Under the pieces are notes generated by a model. That model saw nothing but the letters and a program-made list of their open reading frames with translations. It was not told the origin of the DNA and ran no database searches. Source: Anaerovoracaceae bacterium (GTDB lineage: Bacteria > Bacillota > Clostridia > Peptostreptococcales > Anaerovoracaceae). From it: a stretch of 37,590 bases of DNA. The position numbers were made by a program, and so were the translations under genes. This document shows positions 1 through 34,123 of this stretch, one piece after another (position 1 is the stretch's first letter; every line of letters starts with the position of its first letter). The stretch covers positions 1-37,590 of the forward strand of contig CAVEOR010000001.1 in the NCBI GenBank assembly GCA_963617285.1. Direction: 5' to 3'.

Positions 1-116
1 GGTATACTGATTGTAAATATAACAAAATTTGACTGAGGCTGTTTTTTTTGGAGATAAGTAAGAAAATTACAACTGAGGAAATCGACGAATTTATCAATTA
101 AGGCAGGGCACAGGAT

Positions 117-1505
117 TTGTATTTCATATTAAATAAAAGAATTGCGCTTCGTTCGTGGGTGCGCTCGCCCTATGCCTATTATATCAAAGGCATAAGGGAT
201 GCACAGCGTCTAAGTAGGGAAGAATACGAACTACTGAAGCTATGCGACGCGAGGCACGATTTAGAAGAATCCGCAACATTAAATAAGCTTAGGGCGCAAG
301 GCATCATCTTGGAATGCGAAGAAGGCGAGTTTATGCTGGACGATTGGCAGGACAAGACATACGACAATCGCTATTTTCCAGCCATGAACTGGATGATTAC
401 AGGAAAGTGCAATTATAACTGCCTGCACTGTTTCAACGCTGCGGATAACGCTCCTCTTCAGAGCGAGTGGAGCCTTGACGAAGCGAATATTTTGCTCGAC
501 CAGGCGAGAGATTGCGGCATAAACGGATTTACCATCACGGGCGGCGAGCCTATGCTGCACAAGAATTTCTTCGATATTTTAGAAGGAATATATAGTCGCG
601 ACATGTATGTATACGAGCTGAATACGAACGGGCACTTCATCAACCAAGAATCCCTCGACAGGATGAAAAATCTCGGCTGCGTGCCACTGATGAAAATCTC
701 ATTCGACGGCATAGGCTGGCACGATTGGCTCAGAAATAAGAAAGGTTCAGAAGAGGATGCCCTCAGGGCAATTTCTCTATGCATAGAAAACGGCTTTCCA
801 GTAAAGGTGCAGACGAATGTCCACAGGAACAACATCGATGTGATGTTAGACACCGTGAACATGCTCGATAGAATGGGTGCGAAGGAAACTCGAGTAATCA
901 GAACGACGGAGGCGCCGCGCTGGGAGCAGAACGCAGGTGGTGCGACCCTCAGTTTCAAGGAATACATGGATGCTATGCTTAACCTGTGGGCGGAATATGC
1001 CAAAGAAGAGCATAAGATGGAGCTTACTTCATGGCAGGTCGGGACTATGATTCCGGAAATCAAGGCATTTTCTCTTGCAGCAGTCGAATGTAGACCTGGA
1101 CAGTACAGAGCAAACGCGCCTGTCTGCAAGGGTAACCGAGGAATGATCGCCGTCGGGGCAAACGGAAATGTCTATCCTTGTCATCAGATGTCGGGATATT
1201 ATGAGCAGCATGATGACATCCTCGGCAACCTGAAGGACGGAAGCCTCAAGGAGCTCATAAGCGGCGGCAAATACATGGACGAAATCTGTACGACCCTTGG
1301 AACTTTGCGAGAAAATAATTTGAAATGCGGCAATTGCAAGTACTTCGAGTTTTGCTGCGGCGGGTGCAGGGCAATTGCACTCGCACTCACGGGCGACAAG
1401 TTAGCGTCCGACCCGTCAAAATGTTTTTTCTTCGAAAACGGGTATTACGAGAAAATCGTAGATATGCTCAGCGGTTGGAAAAACTTCTCGGCCATCGAAG
1501 TATAG
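117..1505 (+). CDS. Radical SAM/SPASM-domain protein, probable peptide maturase with an N-terminal RRE/PqqD-like region
   Basis: CxxxCxxC motif CNYNCLHC, TGGEP, TNG and SFDG motifs; C-terminal SPASM cysteines (VCKG...GNVYPC...CGNCKYFEFCCGGC...DPSKC); ~85-aa N-terminal extension; TTG start; adjacent to precursor and export genes. Confidence 0.92.
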   Translation: MYFILNKRIALRSWVRSPYAYYIKGIRDAQRLSREEYELLKLCDARHDLEESATLNKLRAQGIILECEEGEFMLDDWQDKTYDNRYFPAMNWMITGKCNYNCLHCFNAADNAPLQSEWSLDEANILLDQARDCGINGFTITGGEPMLHKNFFDILEGIYSRDMYVYELNTNGHFINQESLDRMKNLGCVPLMKISFDGIGWHDWLRNKKGSEEDALRAISLCIENGFPVKVQTNVHRNNIDVMLDTVNMLDRMGAKETRVIRTTEAPRWEQNAGGATLSFKEYMDAMLNLWAEYAKEEHKMELTSWQVGTMIPEIKAFSLAAVECRPGQYRANAPVCKGNRGMIAVGANGNVYPCHQMSGYYEQHDDILGNLKDGSLKELISGGKYMDEICTTLGTLRENNLKCGNCKYFEFCCGGCRAIALALTGDKLASDPSKCFFFENGYYEKIVDMLSGWKNFSAIEV

Positions 1506-1566
1506 AAGTATAATTGAAGTACGATAGATAATAATAAAATATAAAAGCAAGAAGAAAGGCAATATT

Positions 1567-2058
1567 ATGAACAAAGAGTTGTTTCGCGAAGATGCTGTGA
1601 AGAGAGCTTCGTCTCCCGAGCAATTAAATCAGTACATCAAGGTAACGAATCCAGGAGTCTGGGTGAGTCTTGCCGCAATCATTATCCTTCTCATAGGCGT
1701 ATGCGTATGGGGAGTGTTTGGCAGACTTGAGACGACCGTCGATGCCGTTTGCGTGTCCGACGGAAGTCAGGCGATTTGCTACATGGTGGATTCCGAGGCA
1801 ATAGCATCCGTAGAGAAAGGGCAAGAAGTGAAGATTGGAGAGGCGATTTACATAGTCGATTCCGTTTCGCAGGATGCCATTCAGGTAAGCGACAGCACGG
1901 TTTTATCCGTGAGCGAGAGAGCAAAGAGCCTTTGCGGTGTTTCGAATGCTGACTGGGTCTACGAGATAAAACTTAATCTGAGCGGGACGAAGCTGAAGGC
2001 TGGGGCATATAGCGCCAAGATTGTCACCGAGAGCGTTTCGCCTATGTCGTTTATTTAA
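1567..2058 (+). CDS. NHLM/NHLP bacteriocin-system secretion accessory protein (short form)
   Basis: Family-typical N-terminus LFREDAVKRASSPEQLNQYIKVTNP followed by one TM helix; C-terminal ESVSPMSFI; directly upstream of the two ABC genes. Confidence 0.85.
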   Translation: MNKELFREDAVKRASSPEQLNQYIKVTNPGVWVSLAAIIILLIGVCVWGVFGRLETTVDAVCVSDGSQAICYMVDSEAIASVEKGQEVKIGEAIYIVDSVSQDAIQVSDSTVLSVSERAKSLCGVSNADWVYEIKLNLSGTKLKAGAYSAKIVTESVSPMSFI

Positions 2059-2070
2059 TCGAGGTGCGGC

Positions 2071-4248
2071 ATGGGTAAAGAAAGCAGAATCAAATCGCCT
2101 GTAAAACAAGGCGTGGCAAAGGTTCCAGTCATAATGCAAATGGAAGCACTCGAATGTGGTGCGGCTTGCCTTACGATGATCCTTGCATATTACGACAAAT
2201 GGGTTCCGCTCGAGCAAATACGTTCGGATTGCGGTATTTCGCGTGACGGATCCAAGGCAAAGAATATATTGAAGGCAGCGAGGACCTATGGGCTCATCGC
2301 AAAGGGATATAAATATGATATAGAAGCGCTGAAGAAAGAAGCAAAACTCCCTTGCATCATCCATTGGAATTTCAGCCATTTTGTCGTGCTCGATGGATTC
2401 AAAGGTGACAGCGCGATATTAAACGACCCAGCGAAGGGTAGATATGCCGTTCCGATGGAAACCTTCGAGAACTCATACACCGGTATCTGCTTGATGTTTG
2501 AGCCAGGTGAGGAGTTTACCCCAGGCGGCAAGAAAAAATCCGTAGTCAAGTTTGCGATGAAGAGACTAGAGGGCGCAGGAGCGCAGGTTGCGTTTACCAT
2601 GCTCACGGGTTTCATCGGCTCGCTCGTCGCAATGATTTCACCTGTATTCGACAGGATCTTCTTCGATAGGATTCTGACGGGCAAGAATCCAGATTGGTTC
2701 ATGCCGTTTATCATTGCTATTGCAGGATTTTCTTTGATTAGAATCATAGTCGAATGGCTCAGGTCGGTCTATTCGCTCAAGATAAATGGTAAGCTCACCG
2801 CGGTCGGAAACTCGACATACTTTTGGCATGTCCTGCATCTTCCTATGAACTTTTTCTCCCAGAGAATGACTGGTGACATAAGCAACAGGCAGGCTACGAA
2901 TGCGACGATTGCAAATACGATTGTAAACACGTTCGCACCGCTGCTTTTGAACACGATAATGATGTTCTTCTATCTGTTTGTGATGCTGGAATACAGCTGG
3001 TTCTTGACTTTGATTGGCGTGCTATCGATATTCATCAATGTCGTAGTATCCAAGTACATCTCAAATAAGAGAATCAACCTGACGAGAGTTCAGATGCGAG
3101 ATAGCGGATTGCTCTCGGGCACAACGGTTGCGGGAATCGAAATGATAGAGACCATCAAAGCCAGCGGCGCTGAGAATGGATTTTTCCAGAGGTGGGCAGG
3201 CTATCAGGCAAATGTCAATGCCGCGGATGTAAAATACGCGAAGATGAATCAGTACCTTGGCCTTATACCAACGATTGTATCGACCCTTTGCAATACATTG
3301 GTTTTGATGTTCGGCATATACTTTGCTATGAACGGAAGCTTTACAATCGGTATGGTTACCGCGTTCCAAGGATTCTTAAACTCCTTTACTTCGCCGGCAC
3401 TCAGCCTGATCAATGCAGGCCAGTCGATTCAAGAGATGCGTACGCAGATGGAACGTATAGAGGACGTTATGGCTTATCCTGAGGACAGCATTTACGAGGA
3501 GACAGGCGAGCAGACACTTGATAGAAAGCTTTCCGGAAATGTGAGCATCAAGAATGTTTCCTTCGGCTATTCGAAGTTAGATGAGCCTTTGATTAGAGAT
3601 TTCAACCTCGAACTTCAGCCAGGCAAGAGCGTGGCGTTCGTCGGTGCGTCCGGCTGCGGCAAGTCAACGCTGTCGAAGCTTATCTCAGGACTCTATCAGC
3701 CTTGGACTGGCGAGATACTATTTGACGGAAAGAAAATGCAGGAAATTGGCAGGAATATCTTCACCAGCTCCCTTGCTGTCGTAGACCAAGATATAATCCT
3801 GTTTGCCGATACGATAGCAAACAACATAAAGATGTGGGATGCATCCATTGAGGACTTCGAAATGATACTTGCGGCTCGAGATGCCCAGATTCACGAGGAT
3901 ATCATGCTCCGCGAGGGCGGCTACCAAGGAAAGATAGTCGAAGGCGGACATGACCTTTCGGGCGGACAGCGCCAGCGTCTTGAGATTGCAAGAGTTCTCG
4001 CTCAGGATCCGACGATTCTCATTATGGACGAGGCGACCAGTGCCTTGGATGCCAAGACTGAATACAATGTAGTCAAGTCCATCAGAGACCGCGGAATCAC
4101 CACGATTATAGTTGCTCACAGGCTTTCCACGATTAGAGATTGCGACGAGATTATCGTCCTTGACCACGGCAAGGTGGTAGAGCGAGGAACGCACGATGAG
4201 CTGTTTGCAAAAGGCGGGCTGTACACGAGCCTCGTAACGAGCGATTAG
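2071..4248 (+). CDS. NHLP-family bacteriocin export ABC transporter, C39 peptidase/permease/ATPase
   Basis: C39 motifs QMEALECGAACL, HWNFSHFVVL, NDPAKG; TM domain; Walker A GASGCGKST, signature LSGGQRQR, Walker B ILIMDEATSALD. Confidence 0.95.
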   Translation: MGKESRIKSPVKQGVAKVPVIMQMEALECGAACLTMILAYYDKWVPLEQIRSDCGISRDGSKAKNILKAARTYGLIAKGYKYDIEALKKEAKLPCIIHWNFSHFVVLDGFKGDSAILNDPAKGRYAVPMETFENSYTGICLMFEPGEEFTPGGKKKSVVKFAMKRLEGAGAQVAFTMLTGFIGSLVAMISPVFDRIFFDRILTGKNPDWFMPFIIAIAGFSLIRIIVEWLRSVYSLKINGKLTAVGNSTYFWHVLHLPMNFFSQRMTGDISNRQATNATIANTIVNTFAPLLLNTIMMFFYLFVMLEYSWFLTLIGVLSIFINVVVSKYISNKRINLTRVQMRDSGLLSGTTVAGIEMIETIKASGAENGFFQRWAGYQANVNAADVKYAKMNQYLGLIPTIVSTLCNTLVLMFGIYFAMNGSFTIGMVTAFQGFLNSFTSPALSLINAGQSIQEMRTQMERIEDVMAYPEDSIYEETGEQTLDRKLSGNVSIKNVSFGYSKLDEPLIRDFNLELQPGKSVAFVGASGCGKSTLSKLISGLYQPWTGEILFDGKKMQEIGRNIFTSSLAVVDQDIILFADTIANNIKMWDASIEDFEMILAARDAQIHEDIMLREGGYQGKIVEGGHDLSGGQRQRLEIARVLAQDPTILIMDEATSALDAKTEYNVVKSIRDRGITTIIVAHRLSTIRDCDEIIVLDHGKVVERGTHDELFAKGGLYTSLVTSD

Positions 4249-4262
4249 GAAAGGGGGATATC

Positions 4263-6446
4263 ATGAGTTTATTTCAAGACCAATTAGAAACGAGAAAACT
4301 AAACGATGATGCCGTCATTTCTGATGCGATAGAGCAAATAGCTGGTTCGGTCACGGGTAGACGCATATCCGCTGCCGTTGCAGATGAAAGATTGCGTTCG
4401 CTCGACGCCATAAATCAGATTTTAGGGTACTTCGGCAAGCGTCCTTGCGAGATGCCAGAGAAAATCACCAAATTAGATGATCAGATAGATTTTGCCGCTC
4501 GTCCATACGGGATTATGCACAGAAAAGTGAAGCTCGACAAGGGCTGGTACAAGTGTGCCGTAGGTGCAATGCTCACCGAGAAGAAGCAGGGCGGAATAGT
4601 GGCGCTGCTTCCTGGCAAATTCGGCGGATATTATTTCTATGATACGGACGGAAAGAAGACTAAGTTAAACTCAGCCACAGAACAGCTATTGGAGAGCGAG
4701 GCAATTGCATTCTACAATCCTCTCCCGCAGAAGAAACTCAGTGTGGCGGATTTGATGAAATATTCCTTTGCAACCCTCAATCCTTCGGATATATTCTGGA
4801 TTGTGGTGGCGACAGGAGTCATTTCCCTCGTTGGACTTATTTCACCAAAGCTAAACCAGTTGCTGTTTAAGACGGTTGTAGAGTCTGGCAGCGTCAAACT
4901 ACTCATCGCGATTGCCATATTTACCGTATGCGTTTCCATCAGCTTGATGCTGTTTAGCGTGGCAAAGGCTCTTTTCAACTCGAGGATTACGACGAAGATG
5001 TCAAGTGCGGTTCAATCTGCTACGATGATGAGAATACTCTCGCTTCCAACGAGATTTTTCAAGGACTACAGTGCAGGTGAACTTACGAGTAGATCGATGT
5101 ATATCGGCTCGCTTTCGCAGATGATTACAGATGCTATGTTTACGACTGGACTGACTTCGCTTTTCTCCTTGATATATATATTCCAGATCTTTGAATTTGC
5201 ACCCGCACTCGTCGTGCCAGCACTTTTGATAGTACTTGCAACGGTTGTGCTTTCGATTATCACGACATTTGCACAGATGAAGGTTTCCAGAAGGCAGATG
5301 GATCTGGGAACGAAGGATTCGGGACTCAGCTACTCGCTTATTGCAGGCATCCAGAAGATAAAGCTCGCTGGTGCCGAAAAGCGTGCATTCGCAAAGTGGG
5401 GAAATCAATATGCCAAGAGTGCACAGCTGACGTATAACCCGCCTGCAATAATCAAGATGAGCTCTGTTTTCTCGCTTACCATATCCTGCGTTGGCACGGT
5501 GGTGATGTACTACTTTGCCGTTGAGAGTGGAGTTGCGATTGCGGATTACTACGCATTCCAGGCGGCTTATGGAATGGTGTCTGGGGCATTCCTTGCACTT
5601 GTTTCGATTACGAGCACCGTTGCTCAGATTAAGCCGGTCATGGAAATGGCAAAGCCGATTATGGAAACCGCGCCTGAGACGGCCGAAGTTAGGCAGATTG
5701 TAGAGAGAGTCTCTGGAAATATCGAAATCAACAATGTTTCGTTCAAATACAAGGAGAACGGACCTGCGATTTTCGAGAATCTGTCGCTCAAGATAAGGGC
5801 GGGACAATATGTGGCGATCGTCGGGAAGACGGGCTGCGGCAAGTCAACGCTCATCAGACTCTTGCTCGGTTTCGAGAAACCACAGAAGGGCGCTGTATAC
5901 TACGACGGCAGGGATATTGCCAATCTCGATCTTCAATCCCTCAGAAAGAAGCTGGGCGTAGTGACTCAGGATGGCAAGCTCTTCAGAGGAGATATTTTCT
6001 CCAATATCATAATCTCGGCCCCAAGCCTTACGCTGGATGAAGCGTGGGAGGCGGCGGAGATGTCTGGAATTGCAGACGATATCAAGGCTATGCCGATGGG
6101 AATGCACACGATGATTTCGGAAGGCTCTGGCGGCATATCCGGCGGTCAGAAACAAAGAATCATGATTGCAAGGGCCATCGCCCCGAAGCCGAAAATTTTG
6201 ATATTCGACGAGGCGACGAGTGCCCTCGACAATATAACACAGAAGAAAGTCTCAGACGCATTGAATTCTCTCAAATGCACGAGAATTGTCGTCGCCCACA
6301 GGCTTTCTACGATAAAACAATGCGATAGAATTATCGTAATCGACGGTGGCAAGATAATTGAGGACGGGACGTACGACGAGTTGATAGAAGAGAAGGGATT
6401 CTTCGCTGAACTTGTCGAACGCCAGAGAATCAATACTGAAAATTAA
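4263..6446 (+). CDS. NHLP bacteriocin export ABC transporter, permease/ATPase partner subunit (no catalytic C39 motif)
   Basis: N-terminal domain lacks QxxxxECG; TM domain; Walker A GKTGCGKST, ISGGQKQR, ILIFDEATSALD; tandem with the peptidase-ABC. Confidence 0.93.
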   Translation: MSLFQDQLETRKLNDDAVISDAIEQIAGSVTGRRISAAVADERLRSLDAINQILGYFGKRPCEMPEKITKLDDQIDFAARPYGIMHRKVKLDKGWYKCAVGAMLTEKKQGGIVALLPGKFGGYYFYDTDGKKTKLNSATEQLLESEAIAFYNPLPQKKLSVADLMKYSFATLNPSDIFWIVVATGVISLVGLISPKLNQLLFKTVVESGSVKLLIAIAIFTVCVSISLMLFSVAKALFNSRITTKMSSAVQSATMMRILSLPTRFFKDYSAGELTSRSMYIGSLSQMITDAMFTTGLTSLFSLIYIFQIFEFAPALVVPALLIVLATVVLSIITTFAQMKVSRRQMDLGTKDSGLSYSLIAGIQKIKLAGAEKRAFAKWGNQYAKSAQLTYNPPAIIKMSSVFSLTISCVGTVVMYYFAVESGVAIADYYAFQAAYGMVSGAFLALVSITSTVAQIKPVMEMAKPIMETAPETAEVRQIVERVSGNIEINNVSFKYKENGPAIFENLSLKIRAGQYVAIVGKTGCGKSTLIRLLLGFEKPQKGAVYYDGRDIANLDLQSLRKKLGVVTQDGKLFRGDIFSNIIISAPSLTLDEAWEAAEMSGIADDIKAMPMGMHTMISEGSGGISGGQKQRIMIARAIAPKPKILIFDEATSALDNITQKKVSDALNSLKCTRIVVAHRLSTIKQCDRIIVIDGGKIIEDGTYDELIEEKGFFAELVERQRINTEN

Positions 6447-6453
6447 GTTAGTG

Positions 6454-6473
6454 TAGGTACTTACCCGTACCTA
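6454..6473. promoter_or_regulatory. Perfect 7-bp inverted repeat upstream of the precursor genes (operator or mRNA hairpin)
   Basis: TAGGTAC-ttaccc-GTACCTA, no U-tract; function not determinable from sequence. Confidence 0.4.
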
Positions 6474-6516
6474 AGAGATATTATCATCATATTATTTATA
6501 AAAAGGAGGTTATATC

Positions 6517-6921
6517 ATGGAAATGACCAAAGAAATGAACGAAAAGGCAAGACAAGCAAAAAGTGTTGAAGAGCTCATGGCTCTCGCAAAGGAAAACGAA
6601 GTCGAACTGACAGAAGAAAGTGCGAAAGCATATTTTGATCTTCTTCATCCGCAAAACAGCGAGGTTTCAGATGACGAACTCGACAATGTTGCAGGCGGAA
6701 CGTGCTACGAGGATGGCAGACCTGTTGTAACGATATATAATAGGTGCGAACGCTGGACATGCGAATCATGTCACCGACCTCTTAACCCTGACTATGATAG
6801 TTTTTATGGCGAAAGATATCGTTGCACTTGTCCTACAACCCTTGGATGTGTGGACTGTTATTATTCACGTTATGAGTCTGCACTTCTTTTGTGCTTCCAC
6901 CCAGAGAGATACTATAATTAA
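6517..6921 (+). CDS. Nif11-like leader, double-glycine precursor peptide 1 (61-aa leader, 73-aa Cys-rich core)
   Basis: Strong RBS AAGGAGGT; leader AKSVEELMALAKENEVELTEE...EVSDDELDNVAGG; core with 9 Cys; next to a C39-ABC exporter. Confidence 0.88.
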   Translation: MEMTKEMNEKARQAKSVEELMALAKENEVELTEESAKAYFDLLHPQNSEVSDDELDNVAGGTCYEDGRPVVTIYNRCERWTCESCHRPLNPDYDSFYGERYRCTCPTTLGCVDCYYSRYESALLLCFHPERYYN

Positions 6922-6964
6922 TGCGAAGTAATATCTAAGGAAACATAATGCGGAGGAAATTATT

Positions 6965-7372
6965 ATGAAAATGACCAAAGAAATTAACGAAAAAGCAAGA
7001 CAAGCAAAAAATGTTGAAGAGCTCATGGCAATCGCAAAGGAAAACGAAGTCGAACTGACAGAAGAAAGTGCGAAAGCATATTTTGATCTTCTCCATCCGC
7101 AAAACAGCGAGGTTTCGGATGACGAGCTTGACAATGTTGCAGGCGGAACGTGCTACAAGGATGGCAGACCTGTTGTAACGGCATTTAATTCATGTGAGCG
7201 TTGGGTATGCGAAAGATGCGGCAAAAGAGAAACTGTCGCTGATGGTGGTATCTGGGGTACCAGTTATAAGTGTCCTAATTGTGGCTTAAGTTACGGTTGT
7301 GGGAACTGTCATTATTCACGCTATGAGTCAGCACTTCTTCTGTGCTTCCACCCAGAGAGATACTATAACTAA
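6965..7372 (+). CDS. Nif11-like leader, double-glycine precursor peptide 2 (61-aa leader, 74-aa Cys-rich core)
   Basis: RBS GGAGG; near-identical leader ending ELDNVAGG; core with 9 Cys in the same spacing as precursor 1. Confidence 0.88.
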   Translation: MKMTKEINEKARQAKNVEELMAIAKENEVELTEESAKAYFDLLHPQNSEVSDDELDNVAGGTCYKDGRPVVTAFNSCERWVCERCGKRETVADGGIWGTSYKCPNCGLSYGCGNCHYSRYESALLLCFHPERYYN

Positions 7373-7415
7373 TACGAAGTAATATCTTAAGAAAACATAA
7401 TTCAGAGGAGAAGAA

Positions 7416-8654
7416 ATGAAAACATGTAAATTCAAGAACAAGTCGAAGAAAATCGTTGCGCTGATGCTTGTTTTGGTGATGATTTTCTGTTTTGCGGGAT
7501 GCGGTGGCACGGACACTGACACGCAGACGGAGGACTCAGACAGAGTGATGGGAACGGTTCTCGGTGACTATGTAATCGAGCTTCCGACAATCACTGAAAT
7601 CGACTACGAGGCAGGACTGGCGAAGAACAAAGAAATGTTCGCCCAATTCGGTTGTTCTGCGATTGGCAAGGTTTCGGACGATGGAGATATGCTTATCGGT
7701 CGTTCATTTGACCTTTACTACAGCAATAACCCAGCCTACGTTATTAGGACGGATGTTGAAGGATACTATAAGACGGTCGGACTTGCCTATGATTCCTTCG
7801 ACGGAGAGACATTTGATGTGATTAAAGAAAAGGGTGTGAGCCAGGATGAGCTCCTGACATTGATTTTCTTTACTGAGGATATCATGAACGAGAAGGGGCT
7901 GTATATCGAGGCGAATATGCGCCCTGAGCAGCCAGAGTACACTGGAATTTCTCCAAGCACAGGCACTAACCCTGATGCAGAAGTGTCCCTTTCCTTCTCT
8001 GCTCTCGTAAGATACCTCGGCGAGAGATGTGCCGATGTTGATGAGGCAGTTGAGCTTGCACAGACTTTGAACGTGCATGGCATGATTACGGATGAATTCT
8101 GCTGGGATGGCGGATTCTTCATGGCAGATGAATCTGGCCATTACGGTGTCATGGAACTCGTCGACAACAAGCTTATTTGGCTCGATGGACAGAATTGCCA
8201 GGCTAACTTCTACATCAATGACGAATACAAGGATGTTGCAACTATAGGTGCTGGAACAGGCAGATATGACCTTCTCAGAAGCGAAATCGACTCAATTCAG
8301 AGCGAGGATGAGATGACTAGCCTTATCAAGAAGGTTAGATATACTCAGATTCTCAGCCCATATACCAGCCAATTTGACCCACGCAGTGAATACAGCGGAT
8401 TCGGCGAGGGCTTCGAGTCGGTCGGCGGAGAACTTACCTTGGAAATGTGCCAAAGCGATGAGTATAAGGATATGATTTACGAGACAATCGAAAATGAAGG
8501 AGCGGCAGAGAGGGATAAAGACGTTCAGACGCTTAGAGACGAAGGTACCCAGTGGCTCTCCGTTTGGCAGACAATCTCAAATTGCAATAATAGAACAATC
8601 AAGGCTATCTTCTTCGAGGATGATGAATTGACTTTTGACCTTACGGTTGAATAG
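7416..8654 (+). CDS. Lipoprotein, Ntn-hydrolase (linear amide C-N hydrolase / choloylglycine hydrolase-like), paralog 1
   Basis: Signal peptide with lipobox FAGC (Cys29); internal nucleophile motif G|CSAIGKVSDDGDMLIGRSFD (Cys80); MNEKGL, QANFY and GRY motifs. Confidence 0.82.
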   Translation: MKTCKFKNKSKKIVALMLVLVMIFCFAGCGGTDTDTQTEDSDRVMGTVLGDYVIELPTITEIDYEAGLAKNKEMFAQFGCSAIGKVSDDGDMLIGRSFDLYYSNNPAYVIRTDVEGYYKTVGLAYDSFDGETFDVIKEKGVSQDELLTLIFFTEDIMNEKGLYIEANMRPEQPEYTGISPSTGTNPDAEVSLSFSALVRYLGERCADVDEAVELAQTLNVHGMITDEFCWDGGFFMADESGHYGVMELVDNKLIWLDGQNCQANFYINDEYKDVATIGAGTGRYDLLRSEIDSIQSEDEMTSLIKKVRYTQILSPYTSQFDPRSEYSGFGEGFESVGGELTLEMCQSDEYKDMIYETIENEGAAERDKDVQTLRDEGTQWLSVWQTISNCNNRTIKAIFFEDDELTFDLTVE

Positions 8655-8736
8655 TAAGATGGAAAAGCGGATTGAATTCCTATGCGAATTTAGTTGCTTT
8701 GTCTGAAAAAGATAAGAAAGACGAAAGATAAAGGAT

Positions 8737-9963
8737 ATGAAAAAGAATAATTTTAAGAGAATTTTGGCTATGCTCCTCGCACTTGCACTCGTGTTTAGTT
8801 TTGCCGGATGCGGCGGAAGTGAAACGAGTACGGAGACGGGAACCGATACCTCAGAAGAGGCTCGCACGATGGGAACGGTAGTAGGTGATTATGTCATCGA
8901 ACTTCCGACGATAACGGAGATCGACTTTGATAAGGGACTCGAGAACTTCGAGGCGGAGTTCAGCAAATATGGCTGTACTGCTGTCGGCAAGGTTCTTGAC
9001 AATGGCGATATGGTGATTGGACGCTCATATGACCTTTCTTATAGCTTTTCGCCTGCGTATATAGTTCGCACGGAAATCCCGGGGCTTCTCAAGACGGTTG
9101 GTGTTTCCTATAACGGCTTCAACGGCGCGACATTTGATGATGTAAAGGAAAATGGTCTGACTGAGGATGAGCTCCTTAAGGTTTATTGCTTGACGGGAGA
9201 CGTGCTCAACGAGAAGGGCTTCTACATCGAGGCAAACATGAGAAGCTCACAGCCAGAGGAGACTGGAATCAAAGAATGCAGCGGCACGAATCCTGACGCT
9301 GACATCAGACTCAGCTTTGCGACGCTCATCAGATACCTTGGCGAGAGAGCATCTACAGTAGATGAAGCGCTTGAACTGGCAAGTGAAGTTGATGTTTACG
9401 GATTCAAGACGGATCAATACGACTGGAATGGCGGATTTTTCCTCGCGGATGCAACTGGACACTACGGAGTGCTTGAGCTCATTGACAACAAATTAGTTTG
9501 GAACGACATGCAGCAGGCACACGCGAACTTCTATATTAGCCCAGAGTATAAGGATAGGGCAACGATCGGCGCAGGCATGGGTCGCTACGATGTTGTTATG
9601 GAAGGTATCGACGCTGTCGAGAGCGAGGCGGATATGCGTGAACTCATCGAAAAGGTTAGATATCTGCAGACGCTTTGGCCAGATACTTGTCAATTTGACC
9701 CTGTAGCGGAGTTTGCAGGTACGGAAATCGATGGCAAGACATATTACATCAAGGACGTCCTCGACGAGAGCAACAGAGACATTCTGATGGATTACGCATA
9801 TAGCTATGTGTACACGGATAGAGAGAAGAGCCTTGACGAGAAGAGAGAAGCTAACGACGTTTGGCTTTCCGCATATCAGTCCGTTGTAAATTGCAACAAC
9901 AAAACTTTAAGCGTTAAGTTCTTCGAAGACGACGAACTCCTCTATGACCTTTCCGTAGAATAG
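8737..9963 (+). CDS. Lipoprotein, Ntn-hydrolase (linear amide C-N hydrolase / choloylglycine hydrolase-like), paralog 2
   Basis: Lipobox FAGC (Cys25); G|CTAVGKVLDNGDMVIGRSYD (Cys80); LNEKGF, HANFY, GRY; collinear with paralog 1. Confidence 0.82.
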   Translation: MKKNNFKRILAMLLALALVFSFAGCGGSETSTETGTDTSEEARTMGTVVGDYVIELPTITEIDFDKGLENFEAEFSKYGCTAVGKVLDNGDMVIGRSYDLSYSFSPAYIVRTEIPGLLKTVGVSYNGFNGATFDDVKENGLTEDELLKVYCLTGDVLNEKGFYIEANMRSSQPEETGIKECSGTNPDADIRLSFATLIRYLGERASTVDEALELASEVDVYGFKTDQYDWNGGFFLADATGHYGVLELIDNKLVWNDMQQAHANFYISPEYKDRATIGAGMGRYDVVMEGIDAVESEADMRELIEKVRYLQTLWPDTCQFDPVAEFAGTEIDGKTYYIKDVLDESNRDILMDYAYSYVYTDREKSLDEKREANDVWLSAYQSVVNCNNKTLSVKFFEDDELLYDLSVE

Positions 9964-10002
9964 GGTTTTTCTAAAAACCTCTTTTGAATACTCAAACAAA
10001 TG

Positions 10003-10031
10003 CCCTCTGGGATATGCCCCAGGGGGTTTTT
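10003..10031 (+). terminator. Intrinsic terminator closing the RiPP/lipoprotein operon
   Basis: CCCTCTGGG-atatgc-CCCAGGGGG (9-bp stem, one G-U) followed by TTTTT. Confidence 0.8.
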
Positions 10032-10093: not shown

Positions 10094-10122
10094 TTGTATC
10101 CCGCGCCAAAAAGTTGTACAAT
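10094..10122 (+). promoter_or_regulatory. Probable sigma-A promoter of secDF
   Basis: TTGTAT-17 nt-TACAAT; followed by hairpin AATGCCC-gaaata-GGGCATT (10137-10156) in the predicted 5' UTR. Confidence 0.6.
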
Positions 10123-10200
10123 GTAATGTAAAATAAAATGCCCGAAATAGGGCATTGCGTAATGTTTTAATAAATTTTAATTTATGAGAGGTTTTGAAAA

Positions 10201-15203: not shown

Positions 15204-15824
15204 GTGAAGATTTTTTCGTATATAACTGGGCCGATTCAGGTCAACACTTATTTGGTATATGATGAGAACACAATGAAGGGATTTATCGTTGACCCTGGCG
15301 ATTACTCGCAGAAGCTGAGCAAGCAGGCGATGGATCTTGGAATTGACATAGAGTACATAATTCTCACGCACGGTCACGGCGACCATATCGGTGGAGTTGA
15401 GAAATTCAAACGCGATTTTTCTTCCGCAAAGCTCGTGGCGCATGAAAAAGAGAAGGAAATGCTCTTAGACGCAGTGATGAACTGCTCGGCAGAGTTTTTC
15501 CCAGGCGGCGTGACGCTTACACCTGACATTTGGGTCAAGGATGGCGACAAACTTCAGGTCGGCGACATGGAGCTGAAGATTATACATACGCCGGGCCATA
15601 CGCCAGGCGGCATTTGCATATATGTTGGAGATACGTTATTCAGCGGCGACACGCTGTTTAGACGTTCAGTAGGTAGAACAGACTTCCCAGGTGGCGACCA
15701 GAGAGCTTTGATTAACTCAATCAAGGACAGGCTCTACCACTTGCCAGACGACACGAGGGTGCTTCCAGGACACATGGGAGAAACCACGATTGGGGAAGAA
15801 AAGAGAGGAAATCCTTTTGTATAA
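15204..15824 (+). CDS. MBL-fold metallo-hydrolase (glyoxalase II-like)
   Basis: THGHGDH, HTPGHTPG, FSGDTLF, LPGH motifs; GTG start. Confidence 0.93.
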   Translation: MKIFSYITGPIQVNTYLVYDENTMKGFIVDPGDYSQKLSKQAMDLGIDIEYIILTHGHGDHIGGVEKFKRDFSSAKLVAHEKEKEMLLDAVMNCSAEFFPGGVTLTPDIWVKDGDKLQVGDMELKIIHTPGHTPGGICIYVGDTLFSGDTLFRRSVGRTDFPGGDQRALINSIKDRLYHLPDDTRVLPGHMGETTIGEEKRGNPFV

Positions 15825-17211
15825 TATCATACTTAAGAATGTCGAAAATAAATATGACTACGGCGAGCTCATCAAGATTTTCCTGAGGCCAGAGGAGTTC
15901 ACGCTATATACGGAGGCGGAACTTGCAGAGGCTGAAGTCGTTGAAAATACTGACTCAGAGCGAATTGTATTCAACGAAAGCCTCTCGACCGACAAAAACG
16001 AAATCAAGCGAGAGATTTACAATAAATTATTTTCGTTAACTGGCGAAAAACCAGAGTGGGGCATACTCACTGGGGTGAGACCGGTCAAACTGACGGGTGA
16101 AATCTTTGATAGAGCCGGCGATAAGAGCAAGGTCGAGGAAATCCTAAGAAATGAGTACCTGCTCGCTGACGAGAAAATCAGGCTTTTGATTGACACATAT
16201 ACATACCAGCAGGAATGCTTCGGCAAACCAGAGAGAAACTCAGTCGGACTTTATATCGGAATTCCGTTTTGCCCGACGAGGTGCCTATATTGCTCGTTCA
16301 CATCCAACCAAGTTGGCGACGCAGAGATAGCAAGGTATCTGGAAGCCTTAAAGACAGAAATCCAGTATGTCGGCAGGCGAATGAAGGAGACTGGACTCTT
16401 TGCTGAGAGCATATACATAGGCGGCGGAACGCCGACGACGCTGACGGCTGAGCAACTTGATGATTTACTCGCGACCGTCGAAGAGAATATCGACTTGACT
16501 CAGATACGCGAGTTCACGGTGGAGGCTGGTCGCCCAGAGACCATCACATACGAGAAACTGAGAAAAATCAAGTCGCACAATATAGAAAGAATCAGCATAA
16601 ACCCGCAGACGATGCACCAGAAGACGCTTGAGATAATCGGAAGGCAGCATAAGCCAGAGGACATAATCCAGGCATTCGAGAGGGCAAAGGAAGTCGGGAT
16701 AAACATAATAAACGCTGACCTTATAACAGGACTGCCGGGCGAGAGCCCAGAAGACTTTGCCCAGACACTTGACAAGGTCATGGCACTTGAGCCGGAGAAC
16801 ATAACAGTCCATACGCTGGCGGTCAAGCGTGCATCTAGACTCGTCGAGCTCGATAAGGATTTTCATTATAAGCAAGCCCAGACGGTCAAGGATATGCTTG
16901 GAATCGCCAAAGAAAAGCTCGCAGAGAACGGCTTTCGTCCATATTATCTGTATAGGCAGAAGCACATGGCGGGAGCATTCGAAAACACGGGATATTGCAA
17001 GGAAGGCGCAGCAAGCCTTTACAATGTCCGCATAATGGAAGAAAAACAGACCATAATTGCACTCGGGGCGGGAGGCATCAGCAAGATGTACTACCCAGAC
17101 GAGAACAGGCTCGAACGAGTGCCAAACGTATCAAATTACGAAATCTATATTTCCCGATTAGAGGAAATGCTGGATAGAAAAGAACAAAAAATTTTTAAGG
17201 AGGTAAACTAG
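15817..17211 (+). CDS. hemZ: HemZ-family radical SAM protein (coproporphyrinogen dehydrogenase-like)
   Basis: WGILTGVRP, YIGIPFCPTRCLYCSF, GGGTPT, TVEAGRP, PYYLYRQK; start placed at TTG 15817 behind GAGAGGA (ORF track uses 15790). Confidence 0.92.
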   Translation: MYNIILKNVENKYDYGELIKIFLRPEEFTLYTEAELAEAEVVENTDSERIVFNESLSTDKNEIKREIYNKLFSLTGEKPEWGILTGVRPVKLTGEIFDRAGDKSKVEEILRNEYLLADEKIRLLIDTYTYQQECFGKPERNSVGLYIGIPFCPTRCLYCSFTSNQVGDAEIARYLEALKTEIQYVGRRMKETGLFAESIYIGGGTPTTLTAEQLDDLLATVEENIDLTQIREFTVEAGRPETITYEKLRKIKSHNIERISINPQTMHQKTLEIIGRQHKPEDIIQAFERAKEVGINIINADLITGLPGESPEDFAQTLDKVMALEPENITVHTLAVKRASRLVELDKDFHYKQAQTVKDMLGIAKEKLAENGFRPYYLYRQKHMAGAFENTGYCKEGAASLYNVRIMEEKQTIIALGAGGISKMYYPDENRLERVPNVSNYEIYISRLEEMLDRKEQKIFKEVN

Positions 17212-28579: not shown

Positions 28580-29299
28580 ATGGAATCAAAGAAGAATATA
28601 ACCAACGACATAGTTACGGATTATATAAATGGATTTTATCAGCCGCTGAGCCACGAGCTCGGGATGCTGAGGGAAGCAGCGGAGGCGGATGGAGTTCCGA
28701 TTATACTGAAGGAGACTGAGGCTTTCCTCAGGACATTCGTCGGGATTCTGAAACCGAAGCGGATATTAGAAATTGGAACGGCGGTGGGCTATTCCGCAGC
28801 GTTTTTCAACAAGGCTTGCGGAGCCGAGGTCGTAACGATAGAGAAGAACCCGGAGATGGCGGCTGTGGCTTGGATGAACCTCAAGAAGCTGGGCTGTGAG
28901 GATAGCATAGAGATCCTCAGGGGCGACGGCGAGGCAGCTATCCAGTCGCTGAAAGAGCTGAAGAATGCTGGGGTAGCAGACCCGTTTGCACCGACAGCAA
29001 TGAAGAAGTCGGTAGACGCTGCGCGGGAGTTTGACTTCCTCTTCATAGATGCCGCAAAGAGCCATTACAAGCGTTTCCTCGATGCGGCACTTCCGCTGAT
29101 GAGCAAGGATGCGGTAATCGTATGCGACAACGTGCTTTTCCAAGGCAAGACAGCAAGCGACATCTACGACCAATTAGGAAAGCATAGAACGAACATCAGG
29201 CATATGAGAGAGTTCCTCGATTATATCAGCACGGACGAGCGATTCGAAACGAGCATAATCGCGGTCGGCGACGGGCTCTCGATTACGTACTTGAAATAG
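28580..29299 (+). CDS. SAM-dependent O-methyltransferase (YrrM/TrmR-like)
   Basis: VPII, ILEIGTAVGYS, FIDAAK, CDNVLFQG, GDGL; conserved position between mltG and a U32 gene. Confidence 0.9.
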   Translation: MESKKNITNDIVTDYINGFYQPLSHELGMLREAAEADGVPIILKETEAFLRTFVGILKPKRILEIGTAVGYSAAFFNKACGAEVVTIEKNPEMAAVAWMNLKKLGCEDSIEILRGDGEAAIQSLKELKNAGVADPFAPTAMKKSVDAAREFDFLFIDAAKSHYKRFLDAALPLMSKDAVIVCDNVLFQGKTASDIYDQLGKHRTNIRHMREFLDYISTDERFETSIIAVGDGLSITYLK

Positions 29300-31825: not shown

Positions 31826-32344
31826 ATGAGTGAAAAAACATGTAATTGCAATTGTGCCGAGAAGAGGAAGGAGCAATTCAAAGATCTCCAGCCTGTTTTA
31901 GACCAATATGCACACGTAAAGGGTAGCTTGATTACTATCCTCCAGAAAGCTCAGGATATCTACGGTTATCTGTCAGTAGACACGATCAACTACATATCCG
32001 ATGCAACTGGAATCAAGCCTGCAAAGATCTACGGCGTTGCAACATTCTACGCTCAGTTCAGACTGCAGCCTATCGGTAAGCATCTTGTAATGCTTTGCCA
32101 GGGTACTGCTTGCCACGTAAACGGCTCCGAAATGGTAGCGGAAGCTGCTTGCGAGTTCTTGGGAATCCAGGACGGCGAGACTACAGAAGATGGTCTGTTC
32201 ACGATCAACAATGTTGCTTGTCTGGGATGCTGCTCACTGGCTCCAGTAATGATGGTTAGAAGCGCTGATGGCGACGAAACCTACGGCAACCTGACAAAGG
32301 ACAAAGTAAAAGAGATTTTGGCTGAAATCAAGGCAAGAGGATAG
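31826..32344 (+). CDS. nuoE: NuoE/HydC-family [2Fe-2S] subunit (StnA-like)
   Basis: GVATFY, CQGTAC, CLGCC thioredoxin-like [2Fe-2S] motifs; symbol is a family label only. Confidence 0.92.
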   Translation: MSEKTCNCNCAEKRKEQFKDLQPVLDQYAHVKGSLITILQKAQDIYGYLSVDTINYISDATGIKPAKIYGVATFYAQFRLQPIGKHLVMLCQGTACHVNGSEMVAEAACEFLGIQDGETTEDGLFTINNVACLGCCSLAPVMMVRSADGDETYGNLTKDKVKEILAEIKARG

Positions 32345-32358
32345 GAGGTACTAAAGTA

Positions 32359-34107
32359 ATGAGAGTAGTAGTTGGACAAGGCAGCTGCGGTATCGCTACT
32401 GGTGCCAAGAAGACCGTTGCCAAATTAGAAGAATTGATCGCCGCTAAGGGCTTAAACATCGAAGTAGGAACAGTAGGCTGCGTAGGTACTTGCTACCTTG
32501 AACCTATCGTTGACGTAATCGATGATAACGGCGAATTAACTAGATATGTCAAGGTACAGCCAGACAAGGCTGAGAAGATCGTTGAGAACCATCTCGTAGG
32601 CGGCAAGGTTTGCGAAGACATGGTAATCTCCGAGGAAGACAAGCAGTTCCTTGGCAAGCAGCAGAGAGTAGTTCTTAGAAACTGCGGTGTTATCAACCCA
32701 GAGAACATCGACGAATACCTCGCTGCAGATGGCTACAAGGCTATCGAAAAAGTCCTCAAGACAATGAAGCCTGAGGAAGTTATCGAAGAAATCAAGATTT
32801 CCGGACTTAGAGGCAGAGGCGGCGCTGGCTTCCCTACATGGTTCAAGTGGAACGCTGCTAAGCAGAGCCCAGGAAACGAAAAATATCTCGTATGTAATGC
32901 CGACGAAGGTGACCCAGGCGCATTCATGGACCGTTCCGTTCTGGAAGGCGACCCACATTCACTTCTCGAAGGTATGATTATCGGTGGTTACGCTATGGGA
33001 GCACACCAGGGCGTAATTTACTGCCGTGCTGAGTATCCGCTCGCAATCAAGAGACTTGAGATCGCAATGGCTCAGGCAAGAGAAAGAGGATACCTTGGCA
33101 AGGACATCTTCGGCTCTGGATTTGACTTTGATATCTACATCAAGGCAGGTGCAGGCGCATTCGTATGCGGCGAAGAAACAGCTCTTATCGCATCCCTCGA
33201 GGGCGAAAGAGGTATGCCTAGACTTAAGCCACCTTTCCCTGCAGCTAAGGGATTCTGGCAGAAGCCAACAGACATCAACAACGTAGAAACACTCGCTAAC
33301 GTTCCTTGGATCATCTTCAACGGCGGAGCTGCATTCGGCAAGTTCGGTACAGAAGCTTCCAAGGGTACTAAGGTATTCGCACTCGCTGGCAAGATCAAGA
33401 AGGGCGGCCTCGTAGAAGTACCTATGGGCATGACTCTTAGAGAAGTATTGTTCGGCATCGGCGGCGGCATCAAGAACGACAGAGAGTTCAAGGCTGTTCA
33501 GATGGGCGGACCTTCCGGCGGATGTATCCCAGCTAGCCTCATCGACACTCCTGTAACTTACGAAGACATCAACAAGACTGGTGCTATCGTAGGTTCCGGC
33601 GGTATGATCGTAATGGACGAAGATACTTGCATGGTTGACATGGCTAGATACTTCCTCAACTTCACTCGTGACGAGTCCTGCGGTAAGTGTAACTACTGCC
33701 GTATCGGTACGAAGAGAATGCTTGAAATCCTCGAAAGAATCACAGAGGGCAAGGGCAGAGATGGCGACATCGAGCTTCTTCAGGAACTCGCTGGCAAGAT
33801 CAAGGACGGTTCACTTTGCGGACTCGGCCAGACTGCACCTAACCCAGTTCTTACGACAATCAGACATTTCCGTAACGAGTACGAAGACCATATTTACAAT
33901 CACAAGTGTACAGCTGCTTCTTGTAAGGCACTCATCACATTCTCCATCACTGATGCTTGTAAGGGATGTACGAAGTGCGCACGTAACTGCCCAGTTGGCG
34001 CTATCACAGGCGAAGTTAAGGGTAAGCACGTTATCGACACGCAGAAGTGTATCAAGTGCGGCAAGTGCATAGACAATTGTAACTTCGGTGCAATCGAGAA
34101 GAAATAG
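32359..34107 (+). CDS. nuoF: NuoF/HydB-family FMN/NADH-binding subunit with extra Fe-S domains (StnB-like)
   Basis: GRGGAGFP, CNADEGDPGAFMDR, GAFVCGEETAL, GGPSGG, ESCGKCNYC, HIYNHKCTAASC, C-terminal 2x[4Fe-4S]; symbol is a family label only. Confidence 0.94.
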   Translation: MRVVVGQGSCGIATGAKKTVAKLEELIAAKGLNIEVGTVGCVGTCYLEPIVDVIDDNGELTRYVKVQPDKAEKIVENHLVGGKVCEDMVISEEDKQFLGKQQRVVLRNCGVINPENIDEYLAADGYKAIEKVLKTMKPEEVIEEIKISGLRGRGGAGFPTWFKWNAAKQSPGNEKYLVCNADEGDPGAFMDRSVLEGDPHSLLEGMIIGGYAMGAHQGVIYCRAEYPLAIKRLEIAMAQARERGYLGKDIFGSGFDFDIYIKAGAGAFVCGEETALIASLEGERGMPRLKPPFPAAKGFWQKPTDINNVETLANVPWIIFNGGAAFGKFGTEASKGTKVFALAGKIKKGGLVEVPMGMTLREVLFGIGGGIKNDREFKAVQMGGPSGGCIPASLIDTPVTYEDINKTGAIVGSGGMIVMDEDTCMVDMARYFLNFTRDESCGKCNYCRIGTKRMLEILERITEGKGRDGDIELLQELAGKIKDGSLCGLGQTAPNPVLTTIRHFRNEYEDHIYNHKCTAASCKALITFSITDACKGCTKCARNCPVGAITGEVKGKHVIDTQKCIKCGKCIDNCNFGAIEKK

Positions 34108-34123
34108 GGAGGAGGAAAAGGTA

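Follow-up and report, generated by a model that had tools for sequence, protein, structure and literature searches.

What do the first 10 kb of contig C1 (CAVEOR010000001.1, assembly GCA_963617285.1) of an Anaerovoracaceae bacterium encode, where a radical S-adenosylmethionine (SAM) enzyme, an NHLM-type exporter, two cysteine-rich precursors and two lipoproteins are found in a single block, and do all of these genes serve one pathway? The window, meaning the whole stretch analyzed here, comprises the first 37,590 bases of that contig; it starts at base 1, with no sequence to its left on C1, and derives from an incomplete assembly (1.30 Mb in 180 contigs, 81% complete). A sequence-only reading had described eight co-oriented genes as a dedicated system for making and exporting a new product class and for processing it or protecting the producer. 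The genes and their spacing are as described, the list of open reading frames (ORFs) giving gaps of 61, 12, 14, 70, 43, 43 and 82 nt exactly. We consider it likely, however, that the block joins two separate things: an uncharacterised cassette of gut Clostridia, pairing a radical SAM enzyme with Nif11-type precursors and making stapled mini-proteins of the RiPP kind (peptides made on the ribosome and modified after translation), and lipoproteins that are independent of it. The genes assigned to the cassette are as follows.

117 to 1505, plus strand: radical SAM/SPASM peptide maturase (rSAM), 462 aa, TTG start (PF04055, PF13186).
1567 to 2058, plus strand: NHLM exporter accessory protein, HlyD-like but short at 163 aa, with a single membrane helix predicted (partial TIGR03794).
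2071 to 4248, plus strand: NHLM ABC1, with C39 peptidase, permease and ATPase, 725 aa (TIGR03796).
4263 to 6446, plus strand: NHLM ABC2, a permease/ATPase without peptidase domain, 727 aa (TIGR03797).
6517 to 6921, plus strand: precursor A (preA), 134 aa, with a leader of 61 aa (6517-6699) and a core of 73 aa with 9 Cys (6700-6918).
6965 to 7372, plus strand: precursor B (preB), 135 aa, with a 61-aa leader and a 74-aa core with 9 Cys.

The proposal that the rSAM, the NHLM exporter and the Cys-rich Nif11-like precursors form one system is upheld by their recurrence in other genomes. A scan of one genome per species gave 250 confirmed stretches, from which 77 loci were kept and searched by tblastn with the eight proteins of the window. 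The order HlyD-ABC1-ABC2-precursors (1-12)-rSAM was complete in 32 of the 77; the other 45 included 24 loci with precursors only, 7 with HlyD-ABC1-ABC2-precursor and 5 with precursor-rSAM, the rest being truncated or rearranged forms, and most incomplete loci were interrupted by contig ends. Where at least 2 kb of flank followed the last precursor, the rSAM was present in 41/52 loci; ABC1 and ABC2 were both present in 39/52 loci with enough flank, and every part of the cassette was found in 33 of the 39 loci with both flanks. According to record titles the hosts are mostly metagenome-assembled genomes (MAGs) of Oscillospiraceae, Ruminococcus, Eubacteriales, Clostridia and Lachnospiraceae. The rSAM-first order of the window is shared with a genome of the same genus (G021), which reads precursors-rSAM-HlyD-ABC1-ABC2-STAS and in which the cassette is split over two contigs, the break falling within the leader repeat.

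Some features of this sample deserve separate mention. Several contigs carrying the cassette (L009, L077, L016, L037, L053, L072 and L002) are labelled Alistipes, Eggerthellaceae, Bacteroidaceae, Sphaerochaetaceae, Prevotella or Absicoccus, several of them from "cleanbin" MAGs; these labels could be due to mis-binning or to transfer outside the Clostridia. Orphan arrays of precursors, including L019 (11 copies), L021 (9), L007, L039 and L048 among others, stand apart from any rSAM or NHLM transporter by at least 6 kb in both directions; their maturase may lie elsewhere in the genome, or their cores may be unmodified. In G021, the ORF just before the rSAM (tail of L107 at the end of G021:C17, and start of L108 on G021:C41) joins a Nif11-type leader to a different, Cys-poor core (SNQCRDPQPLPFQIPDDEPD...).

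The two precursors of the window are 75% identical overall, with 93% identity in the leader and 59% in the core; both leaders end in DDELDNVAGG, and the nine Cys follow the leader end. Both genes derive from a tandem duplication, seen as direct repeats D1 (258 nt, 90%), D3 (100 nt, 89%) and D16 (22 nt, 86%).

6513 to 7409, plus strand: tandem duplication with a unit of about 448-452 nt, source of the two precursor genes (direct repeats D1, D3, D16).

The duplicated unit takes in the downstream spacer and ribosome-binding site (RBS), such that the spacer and RBS before the first lipoprotein gene (lipo1) copy the spacer before preB, and lipo1 begins where a third precursor copy would. The claim of two long, nine-Cys precursors also stands, their Nif11-like character being suggested by the family profile: as single sequences the precursors reach 23.8 and 23.7 bits with the Nif11 model (cut-off 32.3) and have no PF07862 match, while the profile matches the solved Nif11 domain 9zn4 (E 5.7e-7) and some homologs carry PF07862. 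The family is large, a word-indexed search returning 446 precursor homologs at E<=0.001, and the profile matching, among 1.84 billion representatives, 3242 clusters (50% identity) when the limit is E<=0.001 and 1574 when it is E<=1e-10. The related loci hold 283 precursor ORFs, at 1-12 per locus, with a median core length of 70 aa and 5-12 Cys; the leader end x-V-x-GG occurs in 256 of them, and G60 and G61 are conserved at 99%. Between paralogs of one locus (510 pairs), leader identity is 0.69 and core identity 0.33; leaders are thus conserved and cores hypervariable. A second type of GG-leader ORF (about 103 aa), whose leader ends LPDDALDGVAGG and whose core, starting AVLDSxFYIARCNxCGWQ, is well conserved and differs in this from the main precursors, lies directly upstream of the rSAM in 8 of 43 rSAM-bearing loci (among them L036:10653-10964, L057:10469-10783, L003:10431-10742, also L010, L011, L070 and L078) and is absent from the window.

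Within the variable cores a scaffold of Cys is retained. Among 242 aligned precursors, C63 is conserved at 98%, C77 at 87%, C111 and C114 at 94% each and C126 at 93%, together with D66-G67-R68, Y119-E120 and, at position 80, an aromatic side chain. The segment between C77 and C111 is variable, often taking the form CxxCG-(10-15)-CxxCG; of 176 parsable cores, 39 have four Cys with a leading CxxC in this segment, and 30 have no Cys there at all. Cores with an odd number of Cys (112) are about as frequent as those with an even number (129), and a disulfide-only product was rejected on this ground. Motif counts in 270 cores, compared with shuffled controls, showed CxxCG in 50% of cores (9% in shuffled), CxxC in 96% (59%) and C-x3-D, which we take to be the motif of the PapB ranthipeptide, in 68% (32%), while YG was depleted, at 21% against 38%.

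The CxxCG knuckles, which preB carries as CERCG...CPNCG, invite the view that the core is mainly a secreted metal-binding mini-protein, zinc-ribbon or rubredoxin-like, with Cys as ligands and with the rSAM adding few crosslinks or making a non-thioether change. The enrichment of CxxCG and CxxC is in keeping with it, as is the AlphaFold2 (AF2) model of preA (mean predicted local distance difference test score, pLDDT, 78.9), in which the core consists of beta-hairpins and the blocks within residues 61-90 and 111-130 have a pLDDT of 84-89 and 93-94, respectively. The zinc-finger or zinc-ribbon leads are themselves all non-significant: in Pfam, the core of preA alone had no match and that of preB only zinc-finger rows (E 0.08-4.2), the Atlas feature search with the preB core reached no score above 0.79 (0.75 for the zinc lead), and the PDB profile gave E 0.16-2.3. 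The knuckle module is, in addition, optional, as seen in the cores that lack Cys in this segment, and the five best-kept Cys lie outside it; moreover, a dedicated rSAM/SPASM enzyme, conserved beside the precursors, would be needless for a plain metalloprotein. We therefore hold a mainly metal-binding product to be unlikely, although it is the main rival of thioether stapling, with which it is compatible rather than exclusive. No known fold could be assigned to the core, as the leader dominated the two fold searches: Foldseek with the whole precursor model had no match at E<=0.001, and the wide VIA fold search returned only rows at Z<4 that cover the leader (residues 1-60), so that the core fold was hardly probed.

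The enzyme that accompanies these precursors has a radical SAM domain (PF04055, 73.2 bits) and a SPASM domain (PF13186, 29.6 bits; cut-off 21.5), and its translation contains the CxxxCxxC of the radical SAM core as CNYNCLHC and the full SPASM Cys pattern CGNCKYFEFCCGGC. No NCBIfam equivalog reaches its cut-off with this protein, the best being AhbD (135 bits against 500), and TIGR04103 gives 69 bits against 725; by these scores the rSAM belongs to a clade without an NCBIfam model, distinct from that of TIGR04103. Its 1965 homologs at E<=1e-20 are annotated just as "radical SAM protein". Among solved structures it comes closest to SkfB, a thioether synthase (E 3e-15), and next to PqqE. The N-terminal domain of about 90 aa was searched for a leader-binding domain of the RRE (PqqD-like) type, and as a profile of residues 1-92 from 35 sequences it had no PDB match at E<=10 and no consistent Pfam match. 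A complex predicted for the rSAM with a precursor had a score of 0.00 and a mark of 0.32, and is counted neither for nor against binding.

An alternative for this enzyme is that it acts as a splicease or an epimerase, the types known from spliceotides and proteusins, where NHLP/Nif11 leaders are likewise in use. Spliceotides, according to PMC11002830, pair such leaders with a radical SAM enzyme acting at Xaa-Tyr-Gly, and preA and preB do contain FYG and SYG. Across the family, however, YG is depleted in the cores, which led us to reject spliceotide chemistry; no PlpY-like partner gene recurs, and the conserved features of the core are Cys. We regard a splicease- or epimerase-type enzyme as very improbable.

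The exporter conforms to the NHLM type in its two larger components, ABC1 scoring 934.4 bits with TIGR03796 (cut-off 853.3), with Peptidase_C39 at E 3e-37, and ABC2 scoring 719.3 bits with TIGR03797 (cut-off 709.4). The sequence-only reading had named an NHLM exporter, and this holds for ABC1 and ABC2, but a full-length HlyD protein is lacking: the 163-aa product of gene 2 aligns to positions 1-95 of the 421 of TIGR03794, with 41.4 bits against a cut-off of 156.2, and has no Pfam family. By sequence comparison it is an HlyD-like stub rather than a full HlyD. In most related loci a protein of the same length, aligned at about 100% coverage, precedes ABC1, and the short form is thus the rule.

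Taken together, bases 1 to 6921/7372 would constitute a RiPP cassette of five functions, with two precursors that each join a helical leader of Nif11 type to a Cys-rich core of 73-74 aa. The rSAM/SPASM enzyme would modify the core while the leader is still attached, most likely by introducing thioether staples from Cys to carbon at C63, C77, C111, C114 and C126; the C39 domain of ABC1 would cut after Gly60-Gly61; ABC1 and ABC2, with the short HlyD-like protein, would export a stapled mini-protein of about 8 kDa; and the exported product would probably be an antagonistic, bacteriocin-like factor. The steps of modification, cleavage and export are deduced from the protein families. Thioether stapling at the conserved Cys is a tentative choice, to which we give a little less than an even chance; it is suggested by the SPASM class of the enzyme, its relation to SkfB, the enrichment of C-x3-D and the absence of an even-Cys parity. 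Antagonism is suggested by cores that are both hypervariable and multi-copy.

The flanks of the related loci include regulators: a SpoIIE-domain phosphatase in 30 loci and a STAS anti-sigma antagonist in 20, both just upstream of the cassette, and, downstream, a sigma-70-family factor in 11 and a MatE transporter in 14 (examples are L017:20-1609, L036:4539-4850, L003:12295-12831, L003:13149-14876 and, in G021, L107:7019-7375). The SpoIIE, STAS and sigma neighbours suggest, from gene content, regulation by a partner switch. They could also mean that the products are signalling peptides (autoinducers), sensed by the membrane SpoIIE-type phosphatase through the STAS partner switch and the sigma factor, a reading favored by the STAS gene placed right after ABC2 in G021 and by the lack of a recurring, conserved immunity gene. 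Up to 12 hypervariable cores per locus, on the contrary, resemble diversifying antagonism more than a signal matched to a receptor, and regulators are common beside bacteriocin loci; in the 10-kb block of the window, moreover, none of SpoIIE, STAS, sigma factor or MatE was found. Autoinduction is, in our estimate, improbable as the main role of these products.

The remaining two genes of the block encode paralogous lipoproteins.

7416 to 8654, plus strand: lipoprotein Ntn (N-terminal nucleophile) hydrolase 1 (lipo1), 412 aa, with lipobox FAGC, conserved pro-segment and predicted nucleophile Cys80.
8737 to 9963, plus strand: lipoprotein Ntn hydrolase 2, 408 aa, paralog of lipo1 (52% identity over 410 columns).

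Surface-anchored Ntn hydrolases had been claimed at this position, and the claim is borne out, by structure more than by sequence similarity. Both translations begin with a signal peptide bearing an FAGC lipobox. Neither protein has a Pfam family (PF03417 and PF02275 appear on some homologs only), both reach 40.3 bits with NF040521, below its cut-off of 85, and, in the PDB, phmmer with lipo1 found nothing and a profile found only a penicillin V acylase (PVA) at E 0.018. The assignment was settled because the fold search matched where sequence searches did not: with the AF2 model of lipo1 (pLDDT 88.2), Foldseek returned bile salt hydrolases (BSH) and PVA (best E 8.4e-12, probability 1.00), and VIA aligned 250 residues to the acyl-CoA:isopenicillin N acyltransferase precursor (2x1c) at Z 23.7 and rmsd 2.6, with model residues 53-412 on chain residues 1-345. 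Matches to PVA/BSH followed at Z 20-22, with model residue 80 falling on chain residue 1 or 2. G79-C80, R96 and D99 are invariant in 46 lipoprotein homologs, at spacings that we take to equal those of Cys2, Arg18 and Asp21 of bile salt hydrolases. On the modelled fold, both proteins are Cys-Ntn hydrolases of the C45/C59 (acyltransferase, penicillin V acylase or bile salt hydrolase) kind, and they are predicted probably to cleave themselves at G79|C80 and to stay anchored through the lipidated pro-segment.

It is the role given to these hydrolases, as processing or protection parts of the system, that finds no support, under a condition, lack of co-occurrence with such precursors in other genomes, that the sequence-only reading had itself named as refuting. 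Homologs of the lipoproteins at E<=1e-5 were found in none of the 77 cassette loci. Among 150 genomes of the same family, five carry the lipoprotein and four the precursor, and no genome has both; a set of 400 from the order includes four with the lipoprotein at E<=1e-30, and the precursor profile found nothing in four lipoprotein-bearing genomes (0/4) that are 96-98% complete. Elsewhere each homolog, the closest in G418 (83% and 73% identity) included, stands singly among genes unrelated to it; conversely, G021 has the cassette and no lipoprotein match. Gene content thus argues that the lipoproteins are independent accessory genes, not part of the RiPP pathway. For the opposite view, in which the two surface hydrolases are dedicated to trimming the exported product or to protecting the producer, one can cite the common strand, the 43-nt gap, the copied spacer and RBS, the lack of an intergenic terminator before 10002 and the absence of the whole block from the corresponding site in two genomes of the same genus, as well as the fact that accessory and immunity genes of bacteriocin loci vary between strains. 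Given the distribution of the homologs, a dedicated role has in our judgment only a slim chance of being correct.

The local history of the block can be traced by comparison with the same genus, in which blastn places the start of synteny just beyond the block.

10094 to 10200, plus strand: start of synteny with the same-genus genomes (region upstream of secDF).

Neither G021 nor G135 has, at that site, any of the sequence to the left of this point; yajC directly precedes secDF there, as seen in G021. In the source genome (G000), yajC lies 190 nt from the end of another contig, C23, and the tail of that contig, after yajC and two hairpins (G000:C23:1-260, L116), ends in 17 nt that match window positions 1-17 at 16/17. 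From this overlap and the adjacency of yajC and secDF in the relatives, we infer that the whole 10-kb block is probably an island between these two genes. No flanking direct or inverted repeats stood out around the island among short repeats at chance level, and its GC content (0.43-0.48 over 1-10 kb) shows no clear difference from that of the rest of the window.

Candidate signals for transcription lie at the two ends of the block.

3 to 8, plus strand: possible -10 hexamer TATACT of an operon promoter, read from the printed sequences.
10002 to 10027, plus strand: intrinsic terminator ending the eight-gene block, a 10-pair stem with 7 G-C pairs followed by a T-run.

A matching -35 hexamer, TTGCAA, stands at the end of C23, and TTGCAA-17-TATACT, with its 17-nt spacer, would span the junction of C23 and C1 as a promoter-like site. 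The single clear terminator of the earlier description corresponds to the one strong terminator-like hairpin, at 10002-10027. The terminator scan found no such site in any of the seven intergenic gaps, and other plus-strand sites (758, 2641, 2803, 5038, 7842 and 8098) have stems of 5-7 pairs and all lie within ORFs. The eight genes, including those of the lipoproteins, are thus probably co-transcribed in the source genome.

The remainder of the window consists of plus-strand housekeeping genes, with no tRNA or Rfam match found there. A second radical SAM gene (15790-17211) is of the HemZ type (TIGR03994, 518 bits; cut-off 321.4) and is a housekeeping gene unrelated to the cassette. A 239-aa plus-strand ORF (28580-29299), between mltG and a gene resembling U32 peptidase/TrhP, has no NCBIfam family at E<=1e-10. 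At 31826-37585, genes resembling NuoE and NuoF precede a fusion of 1165 aa with parts similar to GltD, NuoG and [FeFe]-hydrogenase/formate dehydrogenase; by sequence, the group has the look of a module for an electron-bifurcating hydrogenase or formate dehydrogenase.

Several observations weigh against an independent cassette that makes thioether-stapled, antagonistic mini-proteins. With respect to the chemistry, the rSAM falls below the cut-offs of the named thioether synthases (StsB 88.6 against 625, PapB 72 against 340, SkfB 61.1 against 300), and the CxxCG knuckles and confident AF2 core fold suit a metal-binding mini-protein at least equally well. Precursors occur without a nearby rSAM in 11 of the 52 flanked loci, two of which are arrays with 9 and 11 precursors. 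The cassette is not accompanied by a recurring, conserved immunity gene; MatE occurs in 14 loci, and nothing else is consistent, which weakens the bacteriocin view. The lipoprotein genes share with the precursors the only intergenic terminator of the operon and an RBS-bearing spacer, so that a functional link specific to this lineage is conceivable, and the junction of C23 and C1 is a 17-nt overlap with one mismatch. Weighed with the recurrence data, these points leave the independent cassette as the likely reading.

Arrays of this kind have a familiar counterpart in the prochlorosins, in which Nif11 leaders precede many hypervariable cores processed by one promiscuous enzyme. The present family resembles them in its 1-12 precursors per locus, its contrast between leader and core identity and its single maturase; it differs in having an rSAM rather than LanM, in its occurrence in anaerobic gut Clostridia rather than marine cyanobacteria, and in a Cys scaffold kept across cores. 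Sactipeptide and ranthipeptide systems (SkfB, CteB, PapB, StsB) likewise place an rSAM/SPASM enzyme beside Cys-rich precursors, and the similarity to SkfB and the enrichment of C-x3-D point the same way; in the family described here, unlike those, the rSAM scores far below the family cut-offs, the leader is of Nif11 type, and the core is 2-3 times longer and bears CxxCG knuckles. NHLP/Nif11 (N11P) precursors with the three-gene NHLM exporter are described in passages of Haft, Basu and Mitchell (2010; PMC2887384), which also discuss LanM-adjacent N11P. The window shares with these a long Nif11-type leader ending in GG, paralogous precursors with variable cores, and TIGR03796 and TIGR03797 above cut-off, but its maturase is a SPASM radical SAM protein, neither cyclodehydratase nor LanM, its HlyD is a 163-aa stub, and its cores of about 70 aa are confidently folded in AF2.

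In gene content the cassette agrees with the systems around TIGR04103 ("nif11-class peptide radical SAM maturase 3") and with clusters of anaerobes, reported by Letzel et al. 2014 (PMC4289311), in which NHLP/Nif11 precursors occur with peptidase-transporters and radical SAM genes, with cores of up to 59 aa, those of E. lenta being 50-59 aa. These have the same combination of leader, peptidase-transporter and radical SAM enzyme and are likewise uncharacterised; the rSAM of the window, as noted above, is of a different clade. The assertion that the combination was unrecognised is accordingly overstated, the pairing being known, but it stands for the rSAM family itself, for which there is no equivalog, and no paper was found. 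Full-text literature searches, including the leader motif as a string, returned nothing specific to the cassette family within their reach, which excluded bioRxiv supplements and non-CC journals, and annotation calls its proteins no more than "radical SAM protein", "hypothetical protein" or "Nif11-like leader peptide family RiPP precursor". We are probably dealing with an uncharacterised variant of rSAM-modified Nif11 RiPPs, whose products would be thioether-stapled mini-proteins. As to the lipoproteins, they share with known Cys-Ntn hydrolases (C45 acyltransferase, C59 PVA/BSH and NAAA) the invariant Gly-Cys, Arg at +16 and Asp at +19, and the retained N-terminal pro-segment of lipo1 aligns with that of the acyltransferase precursor; they depart from them in being lipid-anchored and below sequence cut-offs.

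Separating the lipoproteins from the cassette keeps a false "process/protect" module out of annotations, and their sequences, taken on their own, may represent a clade, so far unstudied, of BSH/PVA-like amidases anchored to the surface of gut bacteria. PMC11953309 reports that, of the RiPP types predicted in human microbiomes, rSAM-modified peptides are the most abundant and that most of them are uncharacterised. The present family is large and its gene set simple, a single enzyme and a single exporter going with many substrate variants supplied by nature, and this simplicity makes it a manageable way into new rSAM chemistry on substrates that are folded and protein-like, and possibly to new narrow-spectrum agents active among gut Clostridia. 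A bolder extension, which we consider rather doubtful, is that these secreted mini-proteins of about 70 aa and 8 kDa represent a new class of protein-sized RiPPs, in which a zinc-ribbon-like Cys scaffold is stapled or rewired by an unnamed rSAM/SPASM clade, and which are encoded in hypervariable arrays, as many as 12 to a locus, are wired to SpoIIE, STAS and sigma factors in many lineages and are abundant in human-gut Clostridia. If true, they would constitute a defensin-like arsenal of anaerobes, with a chemistry unlike that of the known sacti- and ranthipeptides.

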